A DNA stretch of 64,000 nucleotides from Dehalococcoidia bacterium (GCA_020353235.1 CP070693.1:644343-708342), one strand, 5' to 3'; shown: positions 7,050-56,321, numbered from the stretch's first letter. The notes: generated by a model from the letters alone, not told the origin. Numbers and translations are program-made.

Positions 7050-7125
7050 TGGTGGAGCTGAGGGGACTCGAACCCCTGACCTCCTCCGTGCAAAGGAGGC
7101 GCTCTCCCAGCTGAGCTACAGCCCC
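7050..7125 (-). tRNA. tRNA-Ala (anticodon UGC), CCA encoded
   Basis: The reverse complement folds as a cloverleaf: GGGGCTG TA GCTC AGCTGGGA GAGC G CCTCC TTTGCAC GGAGG AGGTC AGGGG TTCGAGT CCCCT CAGCTCC ACCA. It has the G3:U70 alanine identity pair, a TTCGAGT T-loop and a 76-nt length. Confidence 0.97.
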
Positions 7126-48960: not shown

Positions 48961-49099
48961 TTCCCGTCCCCCTTCCTGAGCTCCCCACTCCGCCTCAGCC
49001 CCCTATTATAAATCAATCAGGGCTTAATTACACGCCTCTCAGGTTGAAGAGGCAGGGCAGATTAGTGTAGAATTTACCCACATTCATGAAGGGTATGTG

Positions 49100-50338
49100 A
49101 TGAGAGTCCAGAGATGCAAAGGAATGCGCGACCTCTCCCCCGCCGAAATGAAGGTATTTGGCCAGATTGAGGGGCTATTCCGGGACATCTGTCTTAAATG
49201 GGGATACCAAGAGGTCAGGACGCCAACCATTGAGTCTCTCCACCTGTTTACCTCCACCGGAACGCTTACCCCGGGTATGCTGGGCAAGGTGTATTCCTTC
49301 CTGGACTGGGACGGCTGGAGCGGGGAACGGGTGGTGTTGCGACCGGATGGTACCATTCCGGTGGCCCGTTTTTACATCGACAGTATGGCGGATAAGGGGC
49401 TGGCCAAGCTCTTCTATATCACCAACACCTTTATTTTTGAAGAGACCGGCAAAGAGAACCGGGAGAAATGGCAGAGTGGAGCGGAACTAATCGGGGTGAA
49501 GTCAGTCACCGCCGATGTGGAGCTGGTCATACTAGCCTTAGAAGTCTTACAGAGTCTGGGCATTGAAGGGGTGGAGTTAAGGCTATCGCATGCCGGCATC
49601 ATCAGGGCGCTGCTCACCCGGCTCGGCTTAAGCGCTGAGGAGCAAGCCACGCTCTTTGACCAGATTCTGGAGGGGAATACCCGGGCGCTGGCCCGGCTAA
49701 AGCCTGGCGACGGCGGGCAGAAAGAAGCCCTCACCCTCTTGCTCGAGCGTAAAGAAAAGTCAACCCGATTTCTGCGGGAGGTAAAGGCGCTCTCGCCAGA
49801 ACTTGAGCGCCCGCTTAACAATTTAATCAAAGCGGCCGAACTGCTAGAGGCTCTGGGCTATGACTACCTGATTGATATTGCCTCCGGGCGGGGGTTTGAG
49901 TACTACACCGGTGTCATCTTTCAGCTCTCCGTCGGCAATAAGAAGATAGGCGGCGGGGGGCGGTATGATGCCCTCATCCCGCTGATGGGCGGTAAAGACG
50001 TCCCGGCCTCCGGTTTTGCCCTTTACCTGAACCAGCTGATGAAGCTGTTGAAGCCCAAAACGGAGCTGAAAACATCAGGCAGAAAGATATTAATCAGGGC
50101 TAAAGCTGACCTGCCGGAGATACTAACCGAAGGCTTCAAGCTGGCTAAAAGCCTCCATGGAGCTGGCTACAGTGCTGAAATCCAGCTCGGCGATGAGGCG
50201 CCGGCTGATTTGAGGTGGACGATTGAAATTCAGGACAAAGCACCCCGGTTTAGGCTGACTGACCGGGCTAAAAAGAAGCATTTTTCGGCGCCGTCAAGCG
50301 CTGAGATTCAGCAATTACTGGACAAAGAGAGTGAGTAG
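49100..50338 (+). CDS. hisZ: ATP phosphoribosyltransferase regulatory subunit HisZ (HisRS paralogue)
   Basis: HisRS-like fold (KGMRDL, GGGGRYDAL), but HisRS motif 2 is degenerate (FIFEETGKENREKWQ in place of FRYERPQxGRxRxF). It lies immediately upstream of hisG. Confidence 0.75.
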   Translation: MRVQRCKGMRDLSPAEMKVFGQIEGLFRDICLKWGYQEVRTPTIESLHLFTSTGTLTPGMLGKVYSFLDWDGWSGERVVLRPDGTIPVARFYIDSMADKGLAKLFYITNTFIFEETGKENREKWQSGAELIGVKSVTADVELVILALEVLQSLGIEGVELRLSHAGIIRALLTRLGLSAEEQATLFDQILEGNTRALARLKPGDGGQKEALTLLLERKEKSTRFLREVKALSPELERPLNNLIKAAELLEALGYDYLIDIASGRGFEYYTGVIFQLSVGNKKIGGGGRYDALIPLMGGKDVPASGFALYLNQLMKLLKPKTELKTSGRKILIRAKADLPEILTEGFKLAKSLHGAGYSAEIQLGDEAPADLRWTIEIQDKAPRFRLTDRAKKKHFSAPSSAEIQQLLDKESE

Positions 50339-50340
50339 AA

Positions 50341-51741
50341 GTGTCAATAAAAATAGCGTTGCCCAAGGGGCGTCTTCTGGCGGAGACCGCCCGCCGGCTG
50401 CAGCTGGCTGACCTGGGACTGGCCGGTTACTACCCCAAAACCCGCCTTTACCGCCTCACCTCCGAAAGATATCCTGACCTCTTTGCCAAGATATTCCACG
50501 AAAAGGATATCCCGATTCAGGTAGCGGTGGGCAACTATGATTTGGGTATCTGCGGGCTGGACTGGGTGGAAGAGCTGCTGGCCAAGTATCCGAGCTCGGC
50601 TCTGGTCAAAATCAGCAATTTAGGCTACGGCGAGGGCGGGCTGTACATGATGACCAGCCGCGCTGGCGGAGCACCCACGCTGAAAGACGCTCCGGCCAAG
50701 ATGAATACCATACGTATTGCCAGCGAGTACCCCAATCTGGCGGAAGCCTTTGCCCTGAGTAACCGGCTGAGGCGGTTCAGCGTCTTCCCCCTGTGGGGCG
50801 GAGCCGAGGTCTACCCGCCGGAAAATGCCGAGATGGCACTGGTCTCAAGAAGAAAGGGAGAGCCGCTGAGTAATGACCTGGTGCCCCTGAGTGAACTTAT
50901 GGGCTTCAGCGCCTTCCTGATTGCCAACCAGGCCAGCTGGGAAGAGAAAGACCTGAGTGAGATAACCTCGGCTATTGAGAGGGCAGTTTTGCCACCGCTT
51001 GAAGAAGAGACGCCTGCGGTGGCCAGCACTGGAACGCCGGTGCCCTACCCGGTTGGGGACACTGTGCGGCTGGCTATACCCGATGGACACCAGCAGCCGC
51101 CCACCCGGCAGCTACTCGATAAAGCCGGCATACAGGTTGATGATTACCCCTCGGCATCAGGCAACCGCCGCCCGACCACCAGCCTAGGCGGGGTCAGTAT
51201 CAAGGTAATCAGGCCCCAAGATATGCCGCTGCAGGTCGCCAACGGCAATTTTGACCTGGCCATTACCGGCCGGGACTGGCTCAGGGAGCACCGCTACCAG
51301 TTTCCCTCCAGCCCGGCGGTGGAGCTGCTCGACCTCAAATCGGGGCGGGTAAAAATAGTGGCCGTAGTCAGCCAAGACTTGCCGGTAAATGATAGCCGCG
51401 ATTTGCGGCAACTCAGCAACGGCGGCGAGAGCGGGCTGAGGGTGGCTTCAGAGTACGTCAATATTGCCGATAAGTATGCCCGCGACAACCACCTCGGCCG
51501 CTACCGGGTGGTGCCTACCTGGGGGGCCAGCGAAGCCTTTCTGCCCGAGGATGCCGACTTGCTGATTGAGAATACCGAGACCGGGCAGACCCTGGCCCGG
51601 CACAAGCTTAAAATTATTGATAATCTTTTTGAGTCGACTGCCTGTCTCATTGGCCGCAAAGACAGCGCTCGCTCTAAAAAGGGTGAAAAGATAAAGGCAA
51701 TCAGGGAAATACTGAGAGACGCCGTGGAGGAAGACAAATGA
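50341..51741 (+). CDS. hisG: ATP phosphoribosyltransferase HisG: tandem fusion of two short-form HisG modules (466 aa)
   Basis: Module 1 (aa 1-215) has KIALPKGRL and DIPIQVAVGNYDLGICGLDW, but its PRPP loop is degenerate (EMALVSRRKGEPLSNDL). Module 2 (aa 241-466) has RLAIPDG and DMPLQVANGNFDLAITGRDW, with a canonical PRPP loop (DLLIENTETGQTLARHKL). Confidence 0.85.
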   Translation: MSIKIALPKGRLLAETARRLQLADLGLAGYYPKTRLYRLTSERYPDLFAKIFHEKDIPIQVAVGNYDLGICGLDWVEELLAKYPSSALVKISNLGYGEGGLYMMTSRAGGAPTLKDAPAKMNTIRIASEYPNLAEAFALSNRLRRFSVFPLWGGAEVYPPENAEMALVSRRKGEPLSNDLVPLSELMGFSAFLIANQASWEEKDLSEITSAIERAVLPPLEEETPAVASTGTPVPYPVGDTVRLAIPDGHQQPPTRQLLDKAGIQVDDYPSASGNRRPTTSLGGVSIKVIRPQDMPLQVANGNFDLAITGRDWLREHRYQFPSSPAVELLDLKSGRVKIVAVVSQDLPVNDSRDLRQLSNGGESGLRVASEYVNIADKYARDNHLGRYRVVPTWGASEAFLPEDADLLIENTETGQTLARHKLKIIDNLFESTACLIGRKDSARSKKGEKIKAIREILRDAVEEDK

Positions 51742-53060
51742 AAATCATTACCGGCTTGGCTCAAGCCAGAAGCCTGCTGTCCCGGGAGCTCCCCAGCGGA
51801 CTATACCCGATTTCAGATGAGTTAAAGCGAAGTCTAAAGAAGATGTTTGGCACCGAGGACCCGGAGCAGGCGGTACGCATAATCATTGCTGAGGTGCGCC
51901 GCAACGGCGACGCCGCCCTCTTTGAATATACCGCCGCGATAGATGGCATGAAGCTCGCCTCGCTGGAGATAAGCCGGGAGCAGATAGCCGACGCCTATAA
52001 GAATGTGGATAAAGAGCTACTCGCTGCCCTAAAGCTGGCGGCAGAGCGAATCGAGGCGTTTCACCGCACCCAGAAGAAAAGTATGTGGCACGAAGTCACC
52101 AAAGACGGACTGGAGCAAAAAATACGCCCCTTGGAGCGCATCGGCGCCTATGTTCCCGGCGGCACCGCCGCCTATCCCTCAACGGTGCTGATGACGGCGA
52201 TACCGGCTAAAGTAGCCGGGGTGAAAGAGGTCATTCTGGCTACCCCACCCCGGGGTGCAGGAGCTATCCCCGCCCCCAATCTGGTGGCGGCGGATATTGC
52301 CCAAGTTGACCGTATCTTCGGCGTCGGCGGCGCCCAGGCAGTAGCCGCGCTGGCCTACGGCACCGAATCTATACCCAAGGTGGATAAAATCTGCGGGCCG
52401 GGCAATATCTTTGTCACGCTGGCCAAAAAGCTGGCCTTCGGGGCGGTTGATATTGATGGACTGCAGGGGCCAAGCGAGGTCTTGATTATCGCTGATGAGA
52501 CGGCTGATCCCGAATACCGGGCGGCCGACCTCTTAGCCCAGGCGGAGCATGACCCGTTAGCCTCAGCTATCTTGGTAACCGATTCCGCCAAGCTGGCCCA
52601 AGAGGTCAACCGGGAGGTAGACAAGCAGCTAAAAGAGCTGAGCCGGCGCGAGATTGCCGCCGAATCTTTAGAAACCACCGGCACGATAGTGGTGGTGGCT
52701 AATCTAGACGAAGCGGTTGAGCTAGCCAATCTCTATGCCCCGGAGCACCTCTGCCTAGTGGTAAAGAAGACAGACGCCTATAAAGACCGCATCGTCAATG
52801 CCGGCTGTATTTACGTCGGGGAAAGCTCAGCGACGGTGCTGGGTGATTATGTCGCCGGGACCAACCATGCCCTGCCCACCAGCGGCACGGCCAAGTTTAG
52901 CTCGCCACTCAATATTATTGATTTTATGAAGCTGACCAACCTGGTGACCATAGATAAAGCCAACTTAAAAAAGCTGGGCCCAGCCGCGGCTATCATCGCC
53001 CGCGCCGAGGGCTTTGAGGCTCACGCCAAGGCAGTGGAAAAAAGACTAGAAACAGGTTAA
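51738..53060 (+). CDS. hisD: Histidinol dehydrogenase HisD
   Basis: GAYVPGGTAAYPSTVLM, CGPGNIFV, AGPSEVLIIAD-like (QGPSEVLIIAD) and AEHDP. There is an ATGA overlap with hisG. Confidence 0.95.
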   Translation: MKIITGLAQARSLLSRELPSGLYPISDELKRSLKKMFGTEDPEQAVRIIIAEVRRNGDAALFEYTAAIDGMKLASLEISREQIADAYKNVDKELLAALKLAAERIEAFHRTQKKSMWHEVTKDGLEQKIRPLERIGAYVPGGTAAYPSTVLMTAIPAKVAGVKEVILATPPRGAGAIPAPNLVAADIAQVDRIFGVGGAQAVAALAYGTESIPKVDKICGPGNIFVTLAKKLAFGAVDIDGLQGPSEVLIIADETADPEYRAADLLAQAEHDPLASAILVTDSAKLAQEVNREVDKQLKELSRREIAAESLETTGTIVVVANLDEAVELANLYAPEHLCLVVKKTDAYKDRIVNAGCIYVGESSATVLGDYVAGTNHALPTSGTAKFSSPLNIIDFMKLTNLVTIDKANLKKLGPAAAIIARAEGFEAHAKAVEKRLETG

Positions 53061-53089: not shown

Positions 53090-54187
53090 GTGAGTGAAGA
53101 AGGTATAGAGAAATTAATACGGCCCAATCTGGCTGCTTTGGGCGGCTACTCTGCCGCCAAATCGCCGCAGACACTAGCCAAGAAGATAGGCATCGCCGCC
53201 GAGAAGATTATCAAGCTGGATGCCAATGAGAATCCCTATGGCTGTTCGCCCCGGGTAAACAAGGCGCTGGCCAGCTATCCCTATTTAAGCACCTACCCCG
53301 ATGCCGGGCAGAGCGAGCTCAGGGAGTTGCTGGAGGGCTATACCGGCATTGATGCCGAAAATATTGTCGCCGGTAGCGGTAGCGATGAGCTGATTGACCT
53401 CATCCTACGCCTGTTTATCAAGCCGGGTGACGAAGTGATTAACTGCCCGCCTACTTTTGACATGTTTCGCTTCAGCACCCAGATAGGCGAGGGCACCCTG
53501 GTTGAAGTGCCCCGGGATGAAGACTTTGCCGTCAGCGTCAAGGCAGTCAAAGCGGCGATAACCAAAAAGACCAAGATAATCCTGCTGGCCAGCCCCAATA
53601 ACCCGACCGGGACGCTAACCCCGCGGCAGGACATTCTGGAGATACTGAAAATCGGGCTGCCGGTGGTGGTTGATGAAGCCTACTACGAGTTCAGTGGGGA
53701 GACGGTGGCACCGCTGGTCAAGCAGCATCCCAACCTGATGGTGCCGCGGACATTCAGCAAGTGGGCCGGGCTGGCCGGGCTGAGGGTGGGCTACGGCATC
53801 TTCCCGACCAAGATTGCCCGCTACCTGATGGCAATCAAGCCACCTTATAATGTCAACATGGCCGCCCTGGTGGCAGTGCGGGAGTCGCTGGTCGATGTCG
53901 ACTACCTGATGAGCACGGTCAAGAAGATAATCGCGGAAAGGGAGCGTCTCTTCGGCGAGCTCAAAAAGTTCAACTGGCTCAAACCCTTCCCCTCCCAGGC
54001 CAACTTCATTTTCGCCTCGGTGCTCAAGGGAGAAGCCAAGGAGCTTCAGCAGAAACTGCAGAGTAAGGGGATACTGATTCGCTACTTTGACCTGCCCTAC
54101 TGGCGGGACGGTGTCCGTATCAGCGTGGGCAAGCCCGAGCAGACCGACGCCCTCATCAAAGCGCTACAAGAAATAGGAGAAGAATAA
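53090..54187 (+). CDS. hisC: Histidinol-phosphate aminotransferase HisC
   Basis: KLDANENPYG, SPNNPTG and the RTFSKWAGLAGLRVGY PLP-lysine region. Confidence 0.9.
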   Translation: MSEEGIEKLIRPNLAALGGYSAAKSPQTLAKKIGIAAEKIIKLDANENPYGCSPRVNKALASYPYLSTYPDAGQSELRELLEGYTGIDAENIVAGSGSDELIDLILRLFIKPGDEVINCPPTFDMFRFSTQIGEGTLVEVPRDEDFAVSVKAVKAAITKKTKIILLASPNNPTGTLTPRQDILEILKIGLPVVVDEAYYEFSGETVAPLVKQHPNLMVPRTFSKWAGLAGLRVGYGIFPTKIARYLMAIKPPYNVNMAALVAVRESLVDVDYLMSTVKKIIAERERLFGELKKFNWLKPFPSQANFIFASVLKGEAKELQQKLQSKGILIRYFDLPYWRDGVRISVGKPEQTDALIKALQEIGEE

Positions 54188-54778
54188 ATGTCTAAGCGAC
54201 TTACCACCGTTAAAAGGGAGACCAAAGAAACCCAGATCAGCCTGGAGTTCAATCTTGACGGCAGCGGCCAATACCAGATAGCCACCGGGCTCAAGATGCT
54301 TGACCACCTGCTGTCCCAGCTGGCCCAGCACGGTCGGTTTGACCTCAAAATAGCTGCCCGCGGGGACGACTCCCACCACCTGATTGAAGATGTCGCCATC
54401 TGCCTAGGCAAAGCCTTTAACCAGGCGCTGGGGGAGAAGCGGGGCATCATCCGCATGGCCAATGCCTCAGTGCCTATGGATGACGCTCTAGCCACCGTAG
54501 CCGTGGACATCAGCGGGCGGGCCTATACCGTGCTTGAGCTACCCTTCGCCGGTAATGATATGGCCGGCTTTCCCACCGACCTTATCCGCCACTTCCTAGA
54601 GTCCTTAGCCATTGAAGCCAGGCTCAACCTGCACGTCAACATCGTCTACGGCACCAACGACCACCACAAGGCAGAAGCCTTGTTCAAAGCGCTGGGTAGA
54701 GCCCTGGATGTAGCCACCGGGGTTGATGCGCGCCTCTCTGGTGAACTGCCCAGCACCAAGAAGCGCCTGGAGCGCTAG
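54188..54778 (+). CDS. hisB: Imidazoleglycerol-phosphate dehydratase HisB
   Basis: [32 protein letters not shown] and [17 protein letters not shown] are IGPD signatures. Confidence 0.95.
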
Positions 54779-55395
54779 CCCCCATAGGGGCAGGCAACCA
54801 GACACAGGTCGCAAGCCACCAGCTTACCAGCTTGCGGTAGGTTATCAAAGATTGCCAGACAGCGACCGGAGTCCGGCAGGTAGTAGGGCTCAATGATGCT
54901 CAGGGGGCAGGCATCAATACAGGCGGTGCAGCCCTGACATAAGGGGCTCTCTTGGCGGCTATTCCCTGCCGGGTTGGTCGGTGGCAGGATAACGCCTGAT
55001 ACCCTAACTGCCATGAAGCGCAGCCAGGGGCCGAACTTGGGGTGAATAACCAGGGAATTCTTGCCCCAACCGCCTATCCCGGCCACCACCGCCTGCTGCT
55101 TCAGGTTAAGTTTTTTGCCCTGGGGATAGCCGCACCGGCCGATTATTTGGGCGGCAAGTCCCTTTCCCTGAATAAAATCAACCAGCGCCTGAAGCTTGGG
55201 CAGGGCGTGAGCCTTAAAGCCACCCAGCTGGATAACCCCCCGCTTATTCCGGCCGAAATCATCCAGGTCACGCCTGGGGTTAGTGACCAGTCCCAGGATA
55301 AGCAGGCTATCGGCACCACAGAGGGTAACCCCGCAGACATCAAACAATTTTTGCGCCTGGGCAATGATCGCCTGCTCTACACTCATCAGGAACAT
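54775..55395 (-). CDS. Short QueG / reductive-dehalogenase-superfamily-like 4Fe-4S protein
   Basis: [26 protein letters not shown] matches the QueG core. It is followed by [12 protein letters not shown] and CDLCLVACP cluster motifs. At 206 aa it is far shorter than QueG. ATG 55395 overlaps the purC stop (TAATG); the track's longer form overlaps purC. Confidence 0.6.
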
Positions 55396-56321
55396 TACCT
55401 CAGCTTGCGGCCGGTCAGCCTCTGGTAAGCCTCGCGGTAGCGGGCGGTGGTCGCCGCGATGACCTCGGCGGGGAGCATGGGGACGGGGGACTCCTGGTTC
55501 CACCCCGAATTAACTAGCCAGTCGCGAACCGGCTGTTTATCATAGCTGGGCTGGGATTGCCCCACCTTGTACTGCGCCGCCTCCCAGAAGCGGCTTGAGT
55601 CCGGCGTCAGCAGCTCGTCAATTAAAATCACCTGATTATTATCCCGTCCGAACTCCATTTTGGTGTCAGCAATGATAATACCCTGGGCGAGAGCATAGCC
55701 GCAGGCATAGCTATAAACCGCCTGGCTTTTCTCCTCTAGCTCCTCGGCCAGCTTTGTCCCCACCAACTCCTTCAGTTCGTCCATCGTCAGCGGCAAGTCA
55801 TGCCCACTCTCCGCCTTGGTGGTCGGGGTAAATATCGGCTCGGCTAATTCCTGGCTCTGCTTCAGACCCTTAGCCAGGGGAATACCACAGACGCTGCCCT
55901 TTTCTTGATATTCCAGCCACGCCGAGCCGAAGAGATAACCGCGGACGACACACTCGACCGGGATGCGCTCGGCTTTCCGGACCACCATTGACCGCCCCAC
56001 CAGGTAATCGGGATAGGCGAAACGCTCCGCCTGGGAAAGATAGGTATCCAGTAAGCGGACATCATCAATCACTTCCACCAGGTGATTGGGCACCAGATTG
56101 GCCGTCTGCCGGAACCAGAAGAAGGAAAGCTGATTGAGCACCAAGCCCTTGTCTGGGATGCCGCAGGGCAGGACCAGGTCAAACGCCGAGATGCGGTCAG
56201 TGGCCACAATGAGCAGCAGGTTGCCCAGCTCATAGGTATCGCGCACCTTACCCCGGAAGAAGGGGGGCAGGGGCAGCTCCGTCTTCAGTAAAACCTCCGA
56301 GCCGTTACTCATCAACGCCAT
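55395..56321 (-). CDS. purC: SAICAR synthetase PurC (long form)
   Basis: GKVRDTYELGNLLLIVATDRISAFD, ECVVRGYLFGS and ADTKMEFG are PurC motifs. Confidence 0.95.
   Translation of the reverse strand: MALMSNGSEVLLKTELPLPPFFRGKVRDTYELGNLLLIVATDRISAFDLVLPCGIPDKGLVLNQLSFFWFRQTANLVPNHLVEVIDDVRLLDTYLSQAERFAYPDYLVGRSMVVRKAERIPVECVVRGYLFGSAWLEYQEKGSVCGIPLAKGLKQSQELAEPIFTPTTKAESGHDLPLTMDELKELVGTKLAEELEEKSQAVYSYACGYALAQGIIIADTKMEFGRDNNQVILIDELLTPDSSRFWEAAQYKVGQSQPSYDKQPVRDWLVNSGWNQESPVPMLPAEVIAATTARYREAYQRLTGRKLR

Follow-up and report, generated by a model that had tools for sequence, protein, structure and literature searches.

A tandem HisG protein of Dehalococcoidia joining a predicted catalytic module to an old paralogue without the phosphoribosyl pyrophosphate site

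ATP phosphoribosyltransferase (ATP-PRT), a target for antibiotics, is a textbook example of an allosteric enzyme, and all studies of its mechanism have used symmetric homo-oligomers. The short-form HisG_S-HisZ hetero-octamers used as comparators here are those of P. arcticus (PDB 5M8H and 6FU2), A. baumannii (8OY0), T. maritima (1USY) and L. lactis (1Z7M). In P. arcticus (Pa) HisG_S, Arg56 crosses the dimer interface to the pyrophosphate of phosphoribosyl pyrophosphate (PRPP) in the other subunit, and the R32A and R56A substitutions lower activity 25-fold and 42-fold, respectively; Arg32 and Arg56 are conserved in the HisG_S catalytic subunit, and D179 is conserved but sometimes replaced by Glu (PMC9734150). 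Here we analyzed a his gene at positions 50341-51741 of a 64,000-nucleotide stretch of DNA from a Dehalococcoidia bacterium (GCA_020353235.1, CP070693.1:644343-708342; hereafter the window). A preliminary description of this gene had proposed that it encodes a 466-aa protein with two HisG modules, and the open reading frame (ORF) call and scans with PF01634 and TIGR00070 confirmed this. The two modules have lost complementary sets of catalytic residues, and on the evidence of sequence comparison and structure prediction we consider it likely that they form an obligate asymmetric HisG pseudo-dimer with one composite active site that works together with HisZ.

Two HisG modules with complementary residue losses

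The positions of the two modules, the linker and the neighboring genes are listed in Table 1. Both halves matched PF01634 (77.8 bits for aa 1-215 and 120.1 bits for aa 241-466; cut-off, 25.5) and TIGR00070 (101.6 bits for module 1 and 128.1 bits for module 2; cut-off, 75.75). The Pfam scan found no HisG_C regulatory domain (PF08029) in the fused protein, and each module (215-228 aa) is within the size of the short-form catalytic unit (~200-230 aa). Aligned with each other, the halves were 29% identical from end to end (E=6e-29), indicating a similarity far above chance and a divergence far too great for an assembly duplication. Module 1 matched P. arcticus HisGS by phmmer (5m8h; E=1.4e-8, aa 3-203), and module 2 matched PDB 2vd3 (E=7.5e-15). 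The motifs quoted in the preliminary description were all present in their respective modules. The N-terminal motif is KIALPKG in module 1 and RLAIPDG in module 2, the second quoted segment is DIPIQVAVGNYDLGICGLDW in module 1 and DMPLQVANGNFDLAITGRDW in module 2, and the PRPP loop of module 2, DLLIENTETGQTL, corresponds in position to EMALVSRRKGEPL of module 1. The Pro/Glu/Thr-rich linker was also found; among homologues it measures 22-35 aa, with unrelated sequences.

Table 1. Features of the fused hisG gene and its operon in the window
Feature	Coordinates	Strand	Remarks
hisZ-like gene	49097..50338	+	413 aa; HisRS paralogue (regulatory); Pfam tRNA-synt_His 195 bits; HisZ assignment tentative
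Fused hisG'-hisG ORF	50341..51741	+	466 aa + stop; GTG start; uninterrupted
Module 1 (aa 1-215)	50341..50985	+	G1 type; predicted HisG-fold paralogue without PRPP site
Arg35 codon, module 1	50443..50445	+	Pa Arg56 equivalent; R in 138/160 fused proteins
PRPP-loop remnant, module 1 (aa 164-179)	50830..50877	+	EMALVSRRKGEPLSND; unconstrained
Linker (aa 216-238)	50986..51054	+	Pro/Glu/Thr-rich
Module 2 (aa 239-466)	51055..51738	+	G2 type; predicted catalytically competent HisG module
D248-G249-H250, PDGH motif	51082..51090	+	His250 at Pa Arg32 position; 160/160 fused proteins
Gly274 codon, module 2	51160..51162	+	Pa Arg56 position; G in 144/160
PRPP-binding loop, module 2 (D404-T417)	51550..51591	+	DADLLIENTETGQT
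hisD	51738..53060	+	TIGR00069 517.9 bits; ATG overlaps hisG'G stop (ATGA)
hisC	53090..54187	+	TIGR01141 336 bits
hisB (imidazoleglycerol-phosphate dehydratase)	54188..54778	+	NF002116 291 bits

For residue mapping, the Pa HisG sequence was rebuilt from alignments and added to the module alignment as a numbering anchor, and the numbering was validated at nine anchors (R32, R56, K57, C115, D176, D179, T180, G181 and T183). Conservation was counted in 160 fused proteins (non-redundant at 90%), and residues were compared among canonical HisG, the first modules of fused proteins (M1) with their stand-alone counterparts (G1), and the second modules (M2) with theirs (G2), as shown in Table 2. Module 2 carries the PRPP loop (acidic-x-x-[DE]-T-G-x-T-L) together with the Arg/Lys73 equivalent: E410 (159/160), T414 and G415 (each 160/160) and T417 (158/160) align with Pa D176, T180, G181 and T183, and R291 is near-invariant. 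In module 1, every one of these positions is lost and variable. At the columns of Pa D176, D179, T180, G181 and T183, all M1/G1 sequences carry variable or hydrophobic residues, and loop positions 168-179 vary across the 160 fused proteins. The residue mapping and the fused proteins thus bear out the claim that the PRPP loop exists in module 2 only.

Table 2. Residues at Pa HisG catalytic positions in the three groups (M1+G1: 22 diverse fused and 11 stand-alone sequences)
Pa residue	Canonical (n=20)	M1+G1 (n=33)	M2+G2 (n=27)
R32	R 11/20	R 18/33	H 27/27
R56 (acts in trans)	R 17/20	R 31/33	R 2/27, Gly commonest
R73	R/K 20/20	R 6/33, mostly H, Q, S	R 27/27
D176	D/E 20/20	none acidic, hydrophobic	E/D 27/27
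T180	T 19/20	variable	T 26/27
G181	G 19/20	variable	G 27/27
T183	T 19/20	variable	T 25/27

The losses complement each other, in that the trans-acting Arg is absent from the module that has the substrate site and is retained by the module that has none. At the Pa R56 column, Arg was present in 20/22 diverse fused module 1 sequences and 11/11 stand-alone G1 proteins, and the contrast between M1/G1 and M2/G2 gave a Fisher exact p of 2e-12. The earlier wording of a "degenerate" and a "canonical" module therefore needs to be qualified on both sides. Module 1 has lost the PRPP site but is not simply degenerate, because it is strongly constrained and keeps the trans Arg; module 2 has the PRPP loop but is not fully canonical, because it has His at the Arg32 position and has lost the Arg56 equivalent. 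Module 1 also retains the glutamate of the GAAE motif (E156 in 153/160) and conserved cleft-lining blocks (KDIPIQVAVGNYDLGICG, SEYPNLAE and WGAAE-YPPE).

The ratio of nonsynonymous to synonymous substitution rates (dN/dS) had medians of 0.15 for module 1 and 0.10 for module 2 (36 locus pairs) and 0.48 for the linker (31 pairs). In pairwise comparison, module 1 sequences were on average 63.5% identical and module 2 sequences 71.6%; column conservation was 0.74 in module 1, 0.80 in module 2 and 0.38 in the linker. Module 1 is under purifying selection and shows no decay.

AlphaFold2 run with 77 diverse fused homologues returned a confident model (predicted local distance difference test [pLDDT], 91.0; predicted template modelling score [pTM], 0.89), and none of the five models scored below 88.7. 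Most of module 1 exceeded 90, and the linker (pLDDT 53-64) was the sole low region. A pTM of 0.89 for a 466-aa chain of two modules indicates a defined inter-module orientation. The secondary-structure elements of the two modules follow one another largely one-to-one in order; the short helix after the PRPP loop of module 2 (aa 416-420) is coil in the module 1 model, and module 1 is mostly loop where module 2 has helix 352-361. In a Foldseek search of the PDB with the whole-chain model, the top 50 matches were all HisG. The short-form matches had template modelling (TM) scores of 0.82-0.89 (target-normalized), root-mean-square deviations of 2.3-3.0 Å and 25-29% identity over ~225 columns, and the aligned region is most probably one module, module 2. 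For module 1, the phmmer match to 5m8h and the predicted order of secondary structure shared with module 2 support a HisG fold. The proposed covalent pseudo-dimer with one dead site is thus supported by domain scans, conservation, dN/dS and the predicted structure.

Distribution, unfused forms and operon context

The word-indexed search yielded 3803 relatives, of which the best 120 were inspected. These were 465-507 aa long with ~100% query coverage and 65-93% identity, and the named members among them were "ATP phosphoribosyltransferase" of Chloroflexota or Dehalococcoidia. When each species was represented by one genome, at least 342 relatives were confirmed, from which 80 loci were kept; 79 of the 80 carried a single uninterrupted tandem ORF, and the best match among those confirmed was a Dehalococcoidales metagenome-assembled genome (MAG; 94%), which places the window in this order. 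With a divergent member as query, another large clade of fused proteins was found (bacterium HR29, Tepidiformaceae and other Dehalococcoidia) that includes contigs of 2-3.5 Mb, and the fused ORF was intact in >200 database clusters. A hisZ-like ORF lay directly upstream of the tandem or split hisG at every locus with flanking sequence. Tandem HisG is therefore the norm among the Dehalococcoidia relatives recovered here, and the earlier view of it as an unusual architecture is correct only in relation to characterized enzymes.

An exhaustive search of 1.84 billion cluster representatives gave ~14 full-length tandem clusters, with identity down to 34%, as well as proteins of 213-253 aa that matched module 1 only or module 2 only. 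The unfused genes are consecutive and overlapping on one strand. Two loci (L081 and L082) carry a hisZ-like gene, hisG1 (229 aa) and hisG2 (244 aa); L085 carries a partial hisZ, G1 (232 aa) and G2 (237 aa); and three further loci (L086-L088) carry hisZ (426 aa), G1 (226 aa) and G2 (253 aa) and adjoin cytochrome c3 and sulfur-relay genes. L084, a 945-nt contig with no upstream flank, has G1 followed by a gene starting ...ALPDGH (G2 type). Stand-alone G1 proteins make up a family of 109 clusters (90% identity), whose names include Desulfobacterales, Desulfococcaceae, Ca. Magnetomorum, Ca. Magnetoglobus multicellularis and Ca. Magnetomoraceae. The module 1/G1 gene was always fused to, or overlapping, the gene of the active paralogue.

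The separated modules, stand-alone proteins, other single-module HisG and three solved HisG were placed in a neighbor-joining tree; this phylogeny is distance-based only (Poisson distances, 300 bootstraps). M1 and G1 formed one clade in 294/300 bootstraps (98%), and M2 and G2 formed one clade in 287/300 (96%). Fused and unfused members were interleaved, the fused ones being monophyletic in 0/300 (M1) and 6/300 (M2) bootstraps. Mean identity was 28% between G1 and G2, 31% between G2 and canonical HisG and 26% between G1 and canonical HisG. Two paralogue clades, each with fused and unfused members interleaved, indicate an old duplication and more than one event of fusion or fission. Judged from the sequences, the window gene is a fusion of paralogues that had already diverged. 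The term "tandem-duplicated" used for it previously is thus apt insofar as the two modules are related, but not as a sign of recent duplication, since the old paralogues exist separately elsewhere.

Several individual loci and proteins deserve mention. The triad of L081/L082 (1-2761) lies beside genes for the RuBisCO large subunit and inositol-1-phosphate synthase and a weak PaREP1 match, and its G1 proteins were near Dehalococcoidales module 1 sequences in the tree. In L020 (763-2302; DAOUMH010000055.1), the modules are in the same frame with one in-frame stop inside an expanded linker of ~60 aa; either the fused gene has recently been split in nature or the stop is an error of sequencing. 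L039 (JAIWFK010000012.1; 64% identical to the query) has the hisZ-tandem hisG arrangement under a Calditrichales MAG label at a very low coverage of 0.6, and the locus probably reached that phylum through faulty binning and does not truly occur there. An apparent 855-aa HisZ-HisG'-HisG fusion (L061:2830-5400, CAYWRT010000042.1) was rejected as an artefact with a run of N at the hisZ/hisG junction. Two candidate stand-alone genes were left out of the bootstrap analysis: P0158, on a 930-nt contig, is probably a truncated tandem, with a 473-aa protein in its cluster, and the status of P0148, with a 495-aa protein in its cluster, is ambiguous. P0195 (637 aa) looks like a HisZ-G1 fusion on a very GC-rich contig with Arg/Pro-rich, frameshift-like stretches, and P0245, a long protein of 777 aa, has multiple domains, the last of them a long-form HisG, and N-terminal parts that resemble other his enzymes.

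In the window, the operon order is hisZ-hisG'G-hisD-hisC-hisB, and the GTG start of hisG'G lies 2 nt past the stop of the hisZ-like gene, which agrees with the earlier statement that hisZ adjoins the fused gene. About 95 C-terminal residues of the HisZ-like protein are outside the Pfam tRNA-synt_His match. The HisZ partners of the G1/G2 system span 321-426 aa and may represent a distinct HisZ subgroup. Within the 64-kb window there was no second hisG-like ORF and no other hisZ/hisS-like ORF. The Rfam scan of the window showed no riboswitch or attenuator near the operon, its only hit being a tRNA at 7053-7125 (-), and promoter and terminator scans were at chance level. A Cys-rich 242-aa ORF at 54775-55503 (-) is convergent with hisB, with a 4-nt overlap at the hisB stop; it carries C-x2-C-x2-C-x3-CP, a ferredoxin-like 4Fe-4S motif.

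With respect to annotation, the inactive paralogue by itself passes the TIGR00070 cut-off, with 101.6 bits for module 1 of the window (50341-50985), 77.7 for L086:4324-5001 and 114.2 for L081:4001-4687. Wherever the sources name it, the name is "ATP phosphoribosyltransferase", and this appears to be a systematic error of annotation. Such mislabelling affects metabolic reconstructions for Dehalococcoidia and Desulfobacterales.

A composite active site and alternative roles for module 1

We propose that the gene product is the catalytic component of a short-form, HisZ-dependent ATP-PRT, in which two old paralogues, covalently joined, would take the place of the HisG_S homodimer. Module 2 would bind PRPP and ATP and carry out the chemistry, and module 1, predicted to be unable to bind PRPP, would be retained as its obligatory dimer partner. 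We infer a dimer-like geometry in which Arg35 of module 1 most likely acts in trans, crossing the interface into the module 2 site and stabilizing the leaving pyrophosphate as Pa Arg56 does; the lost Arg56 equivalent of module 2 would point into the dead site. His250 would stand in place of the second leaving-group Arg (Arg32). We also infer a partnership with HisZ, which would activate the enzyme and mediate histidine inhibition as in other short forms, in a complex that probably contains two fused chains for four HisZ and would thus have only two active sites where the usual complex has four.

Some observations weigh against this model. Arg35 is replaced by P, H, G or another residue in 22/160 fused proteins. 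Arg11 of module 1 (PKGR, 50371-50373), the equivalent of Arg32, is kept in 136/160 fused proteins, mostly Dehalococcoidales relatives, and the residue at this position in stand-alone G1 proteins is E, G, D, S or K; the proposed model does not explain the retention of Arg11 beside a dead site. The upstream protein is below the NCBIfam hisZ equivalog cut-off (TIGR00443, 211 vs 271.65 bits; TIGR00442 hisS, 206 vs 286.75 bits), and we regard its assignment to the HisZ family as tentative. The search for an additional canonical hisG covered the 64-kb window only, and AlphaFold2 with a shallow alignment of 56 close homologues gave a pLDDT of 59.6 and a pTM of 0.44.

The strong purifying selection on M1 and its conserved core blocks would also be expected if module 1 were a structural partner only, serving as a dimerization scaffold or for HisZ docking, with Arg35 conserved for structure. 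The trans role of Arg35 comes from homology only, and the residue is replaced in ~14% of the fused proteins. We nevertheless find a purely structural role rather unlikely, because among the mapped catalytic residues it is the trans-acting one that M1/G1 near-universally retains and M2/G2 has lost (p=2e-12), and such complementarity would not be expected if the residue served structure alone. The clefts of HisG proteins descend from a small-ligand-binding fold of the periplasmic-binding-protein type. This descent, together with the highly conserved cleft-lining blocks that M1 retains, would suit a regulatory domain that binds AMP/ADP, histidine or another effector in its intact inter-domain cleft and provides a second allosteric input beside HisZ. 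However, the same blocks are conserved in every HisG and may be structural or part of an interface, and the former phosphate-binding loop of M1 is unconstrained in sequence and length, which makes a regulatory domain improbable.

That both modules are active, with module 1 binding PRPP in a non-canonical manner, might be suggested by its passing the TIGR00070 equivalog cut-off and by the retained E156, but the equivalents of R73, D176, T180, G181 and T183 are lost and their substitutes are not conserved within the family. A functional site would show constraint, and we therefore judge this explanation highly improbable. The in-frame stop in the linker of L020 could be taken as a sign of an artefact or pseudogene, arising from a duplication in the assembly or from a stop overlooked between two genes. 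Both had been named as grounds on which the fusion would fall. The divergence of the halves and the intact ORF in 79/80 loci exclude an assembly duplication, and no stop was found between the modules. Intact ORFs in >200 clusters, contigs of >2 Mb and a dN/dS well below 1 in both halves likewise leave an artefact hardly conceivable.

Comparison with known systems

Full-text literature searches and the reviews on his-gene fusion and elongation turned up no description of tandem or heteromeric HisG, subscription papers being outside the scope of this search; the review on his gene elongation names hisG only as an operon member (PMC7284861). The sequences are already in databases under a generic name; what seems not to have been described before is the architecture and its logic. 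A natural asymmetric ATP-PRT of this kind would split the substrate-binding from the Arg-donating subunit, thus offering a clean system for the trans role of Arg56 and for HisZ activation across the dimer. It would also add, from bacterial central metabolism, a case of a retained dead paralogue with repeated fusion and fission. A bolder reading, which we consider possible but doubtful, is that HisZ with HisG1·HisG2, fused or split, constitutes a third class of ATP-PRT in which the dead paralogue has also acquired a new regulatory role. If so, effector binding or an altered HisZ interface or stoichiometry would be candidates for that role, and entry into histidine synthesis would be under half-of-sites control in Dehalococcoidia and in Desulfobacterales, including multicellular magnetotactic bacteria.

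Residue loss, a retained fold, purifying selection and co-encoding with the active paralogue, the features of a pseudoenzyme partner, were all found here. In this respect the protein resembles the prozymes of trypanosomatid AdoMetDC and deoxyhypusine synthase, in which a dead paralogue is kept as the obligatory mate of the active partner (PMC5201418, PMC3663545). The parallel is an analogy and not a membership, because the families and organisms are unrelated, the dead partner here seems to be an Arg donor and is often fused, and HisZ is also present. Among his genes, the gene elongation of HisA/HisF likewise involved duplication, divergence and fusion of paralogous modules (PMC7284861). Those proteins consist of two half-barrels that form one domain, whereas the present protein contains two complete enzyme domains as a putative pseudo-dimer.

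The long-form HisG_L homo-hexamers (E. coli 1H3D, M. tuberculosis 1NH7 and C. jejuni 4YB5) share the catalytic core and a dimeric catalytic building block, but the fused protein lacks their C-terminal histidine-binding domain (PF08029), its extra mass is an N-terminal catalytic-type module, and a hisZ-like gene is present, whereas the long forms are independent of HisZ. The closest likeness is to HisG_S-HisZ: the modules are of ~210 aa without a C-terminal regulatory domain, hisZ is adjacent, the loop of module 2 is intact, and a dimer-type pairing of HisG folds with an Arg across the interface is expected from the model. The locus differs from the HisG_S homodimer, with its identical subunits and two equivalent active sites, in that the modules are 29% identical, belong to separate paralogue clades and have one PRPP site only. 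The catalytic module has His250 and Gly274 at the positions of Arg32 and Arg56, and it is the partner module that holds the Arg56 equivalent. In comparison with characterized HisG_S-HisZ, half the active sites per complex are predicted, and the HisZ is below the equivalog cut-off.

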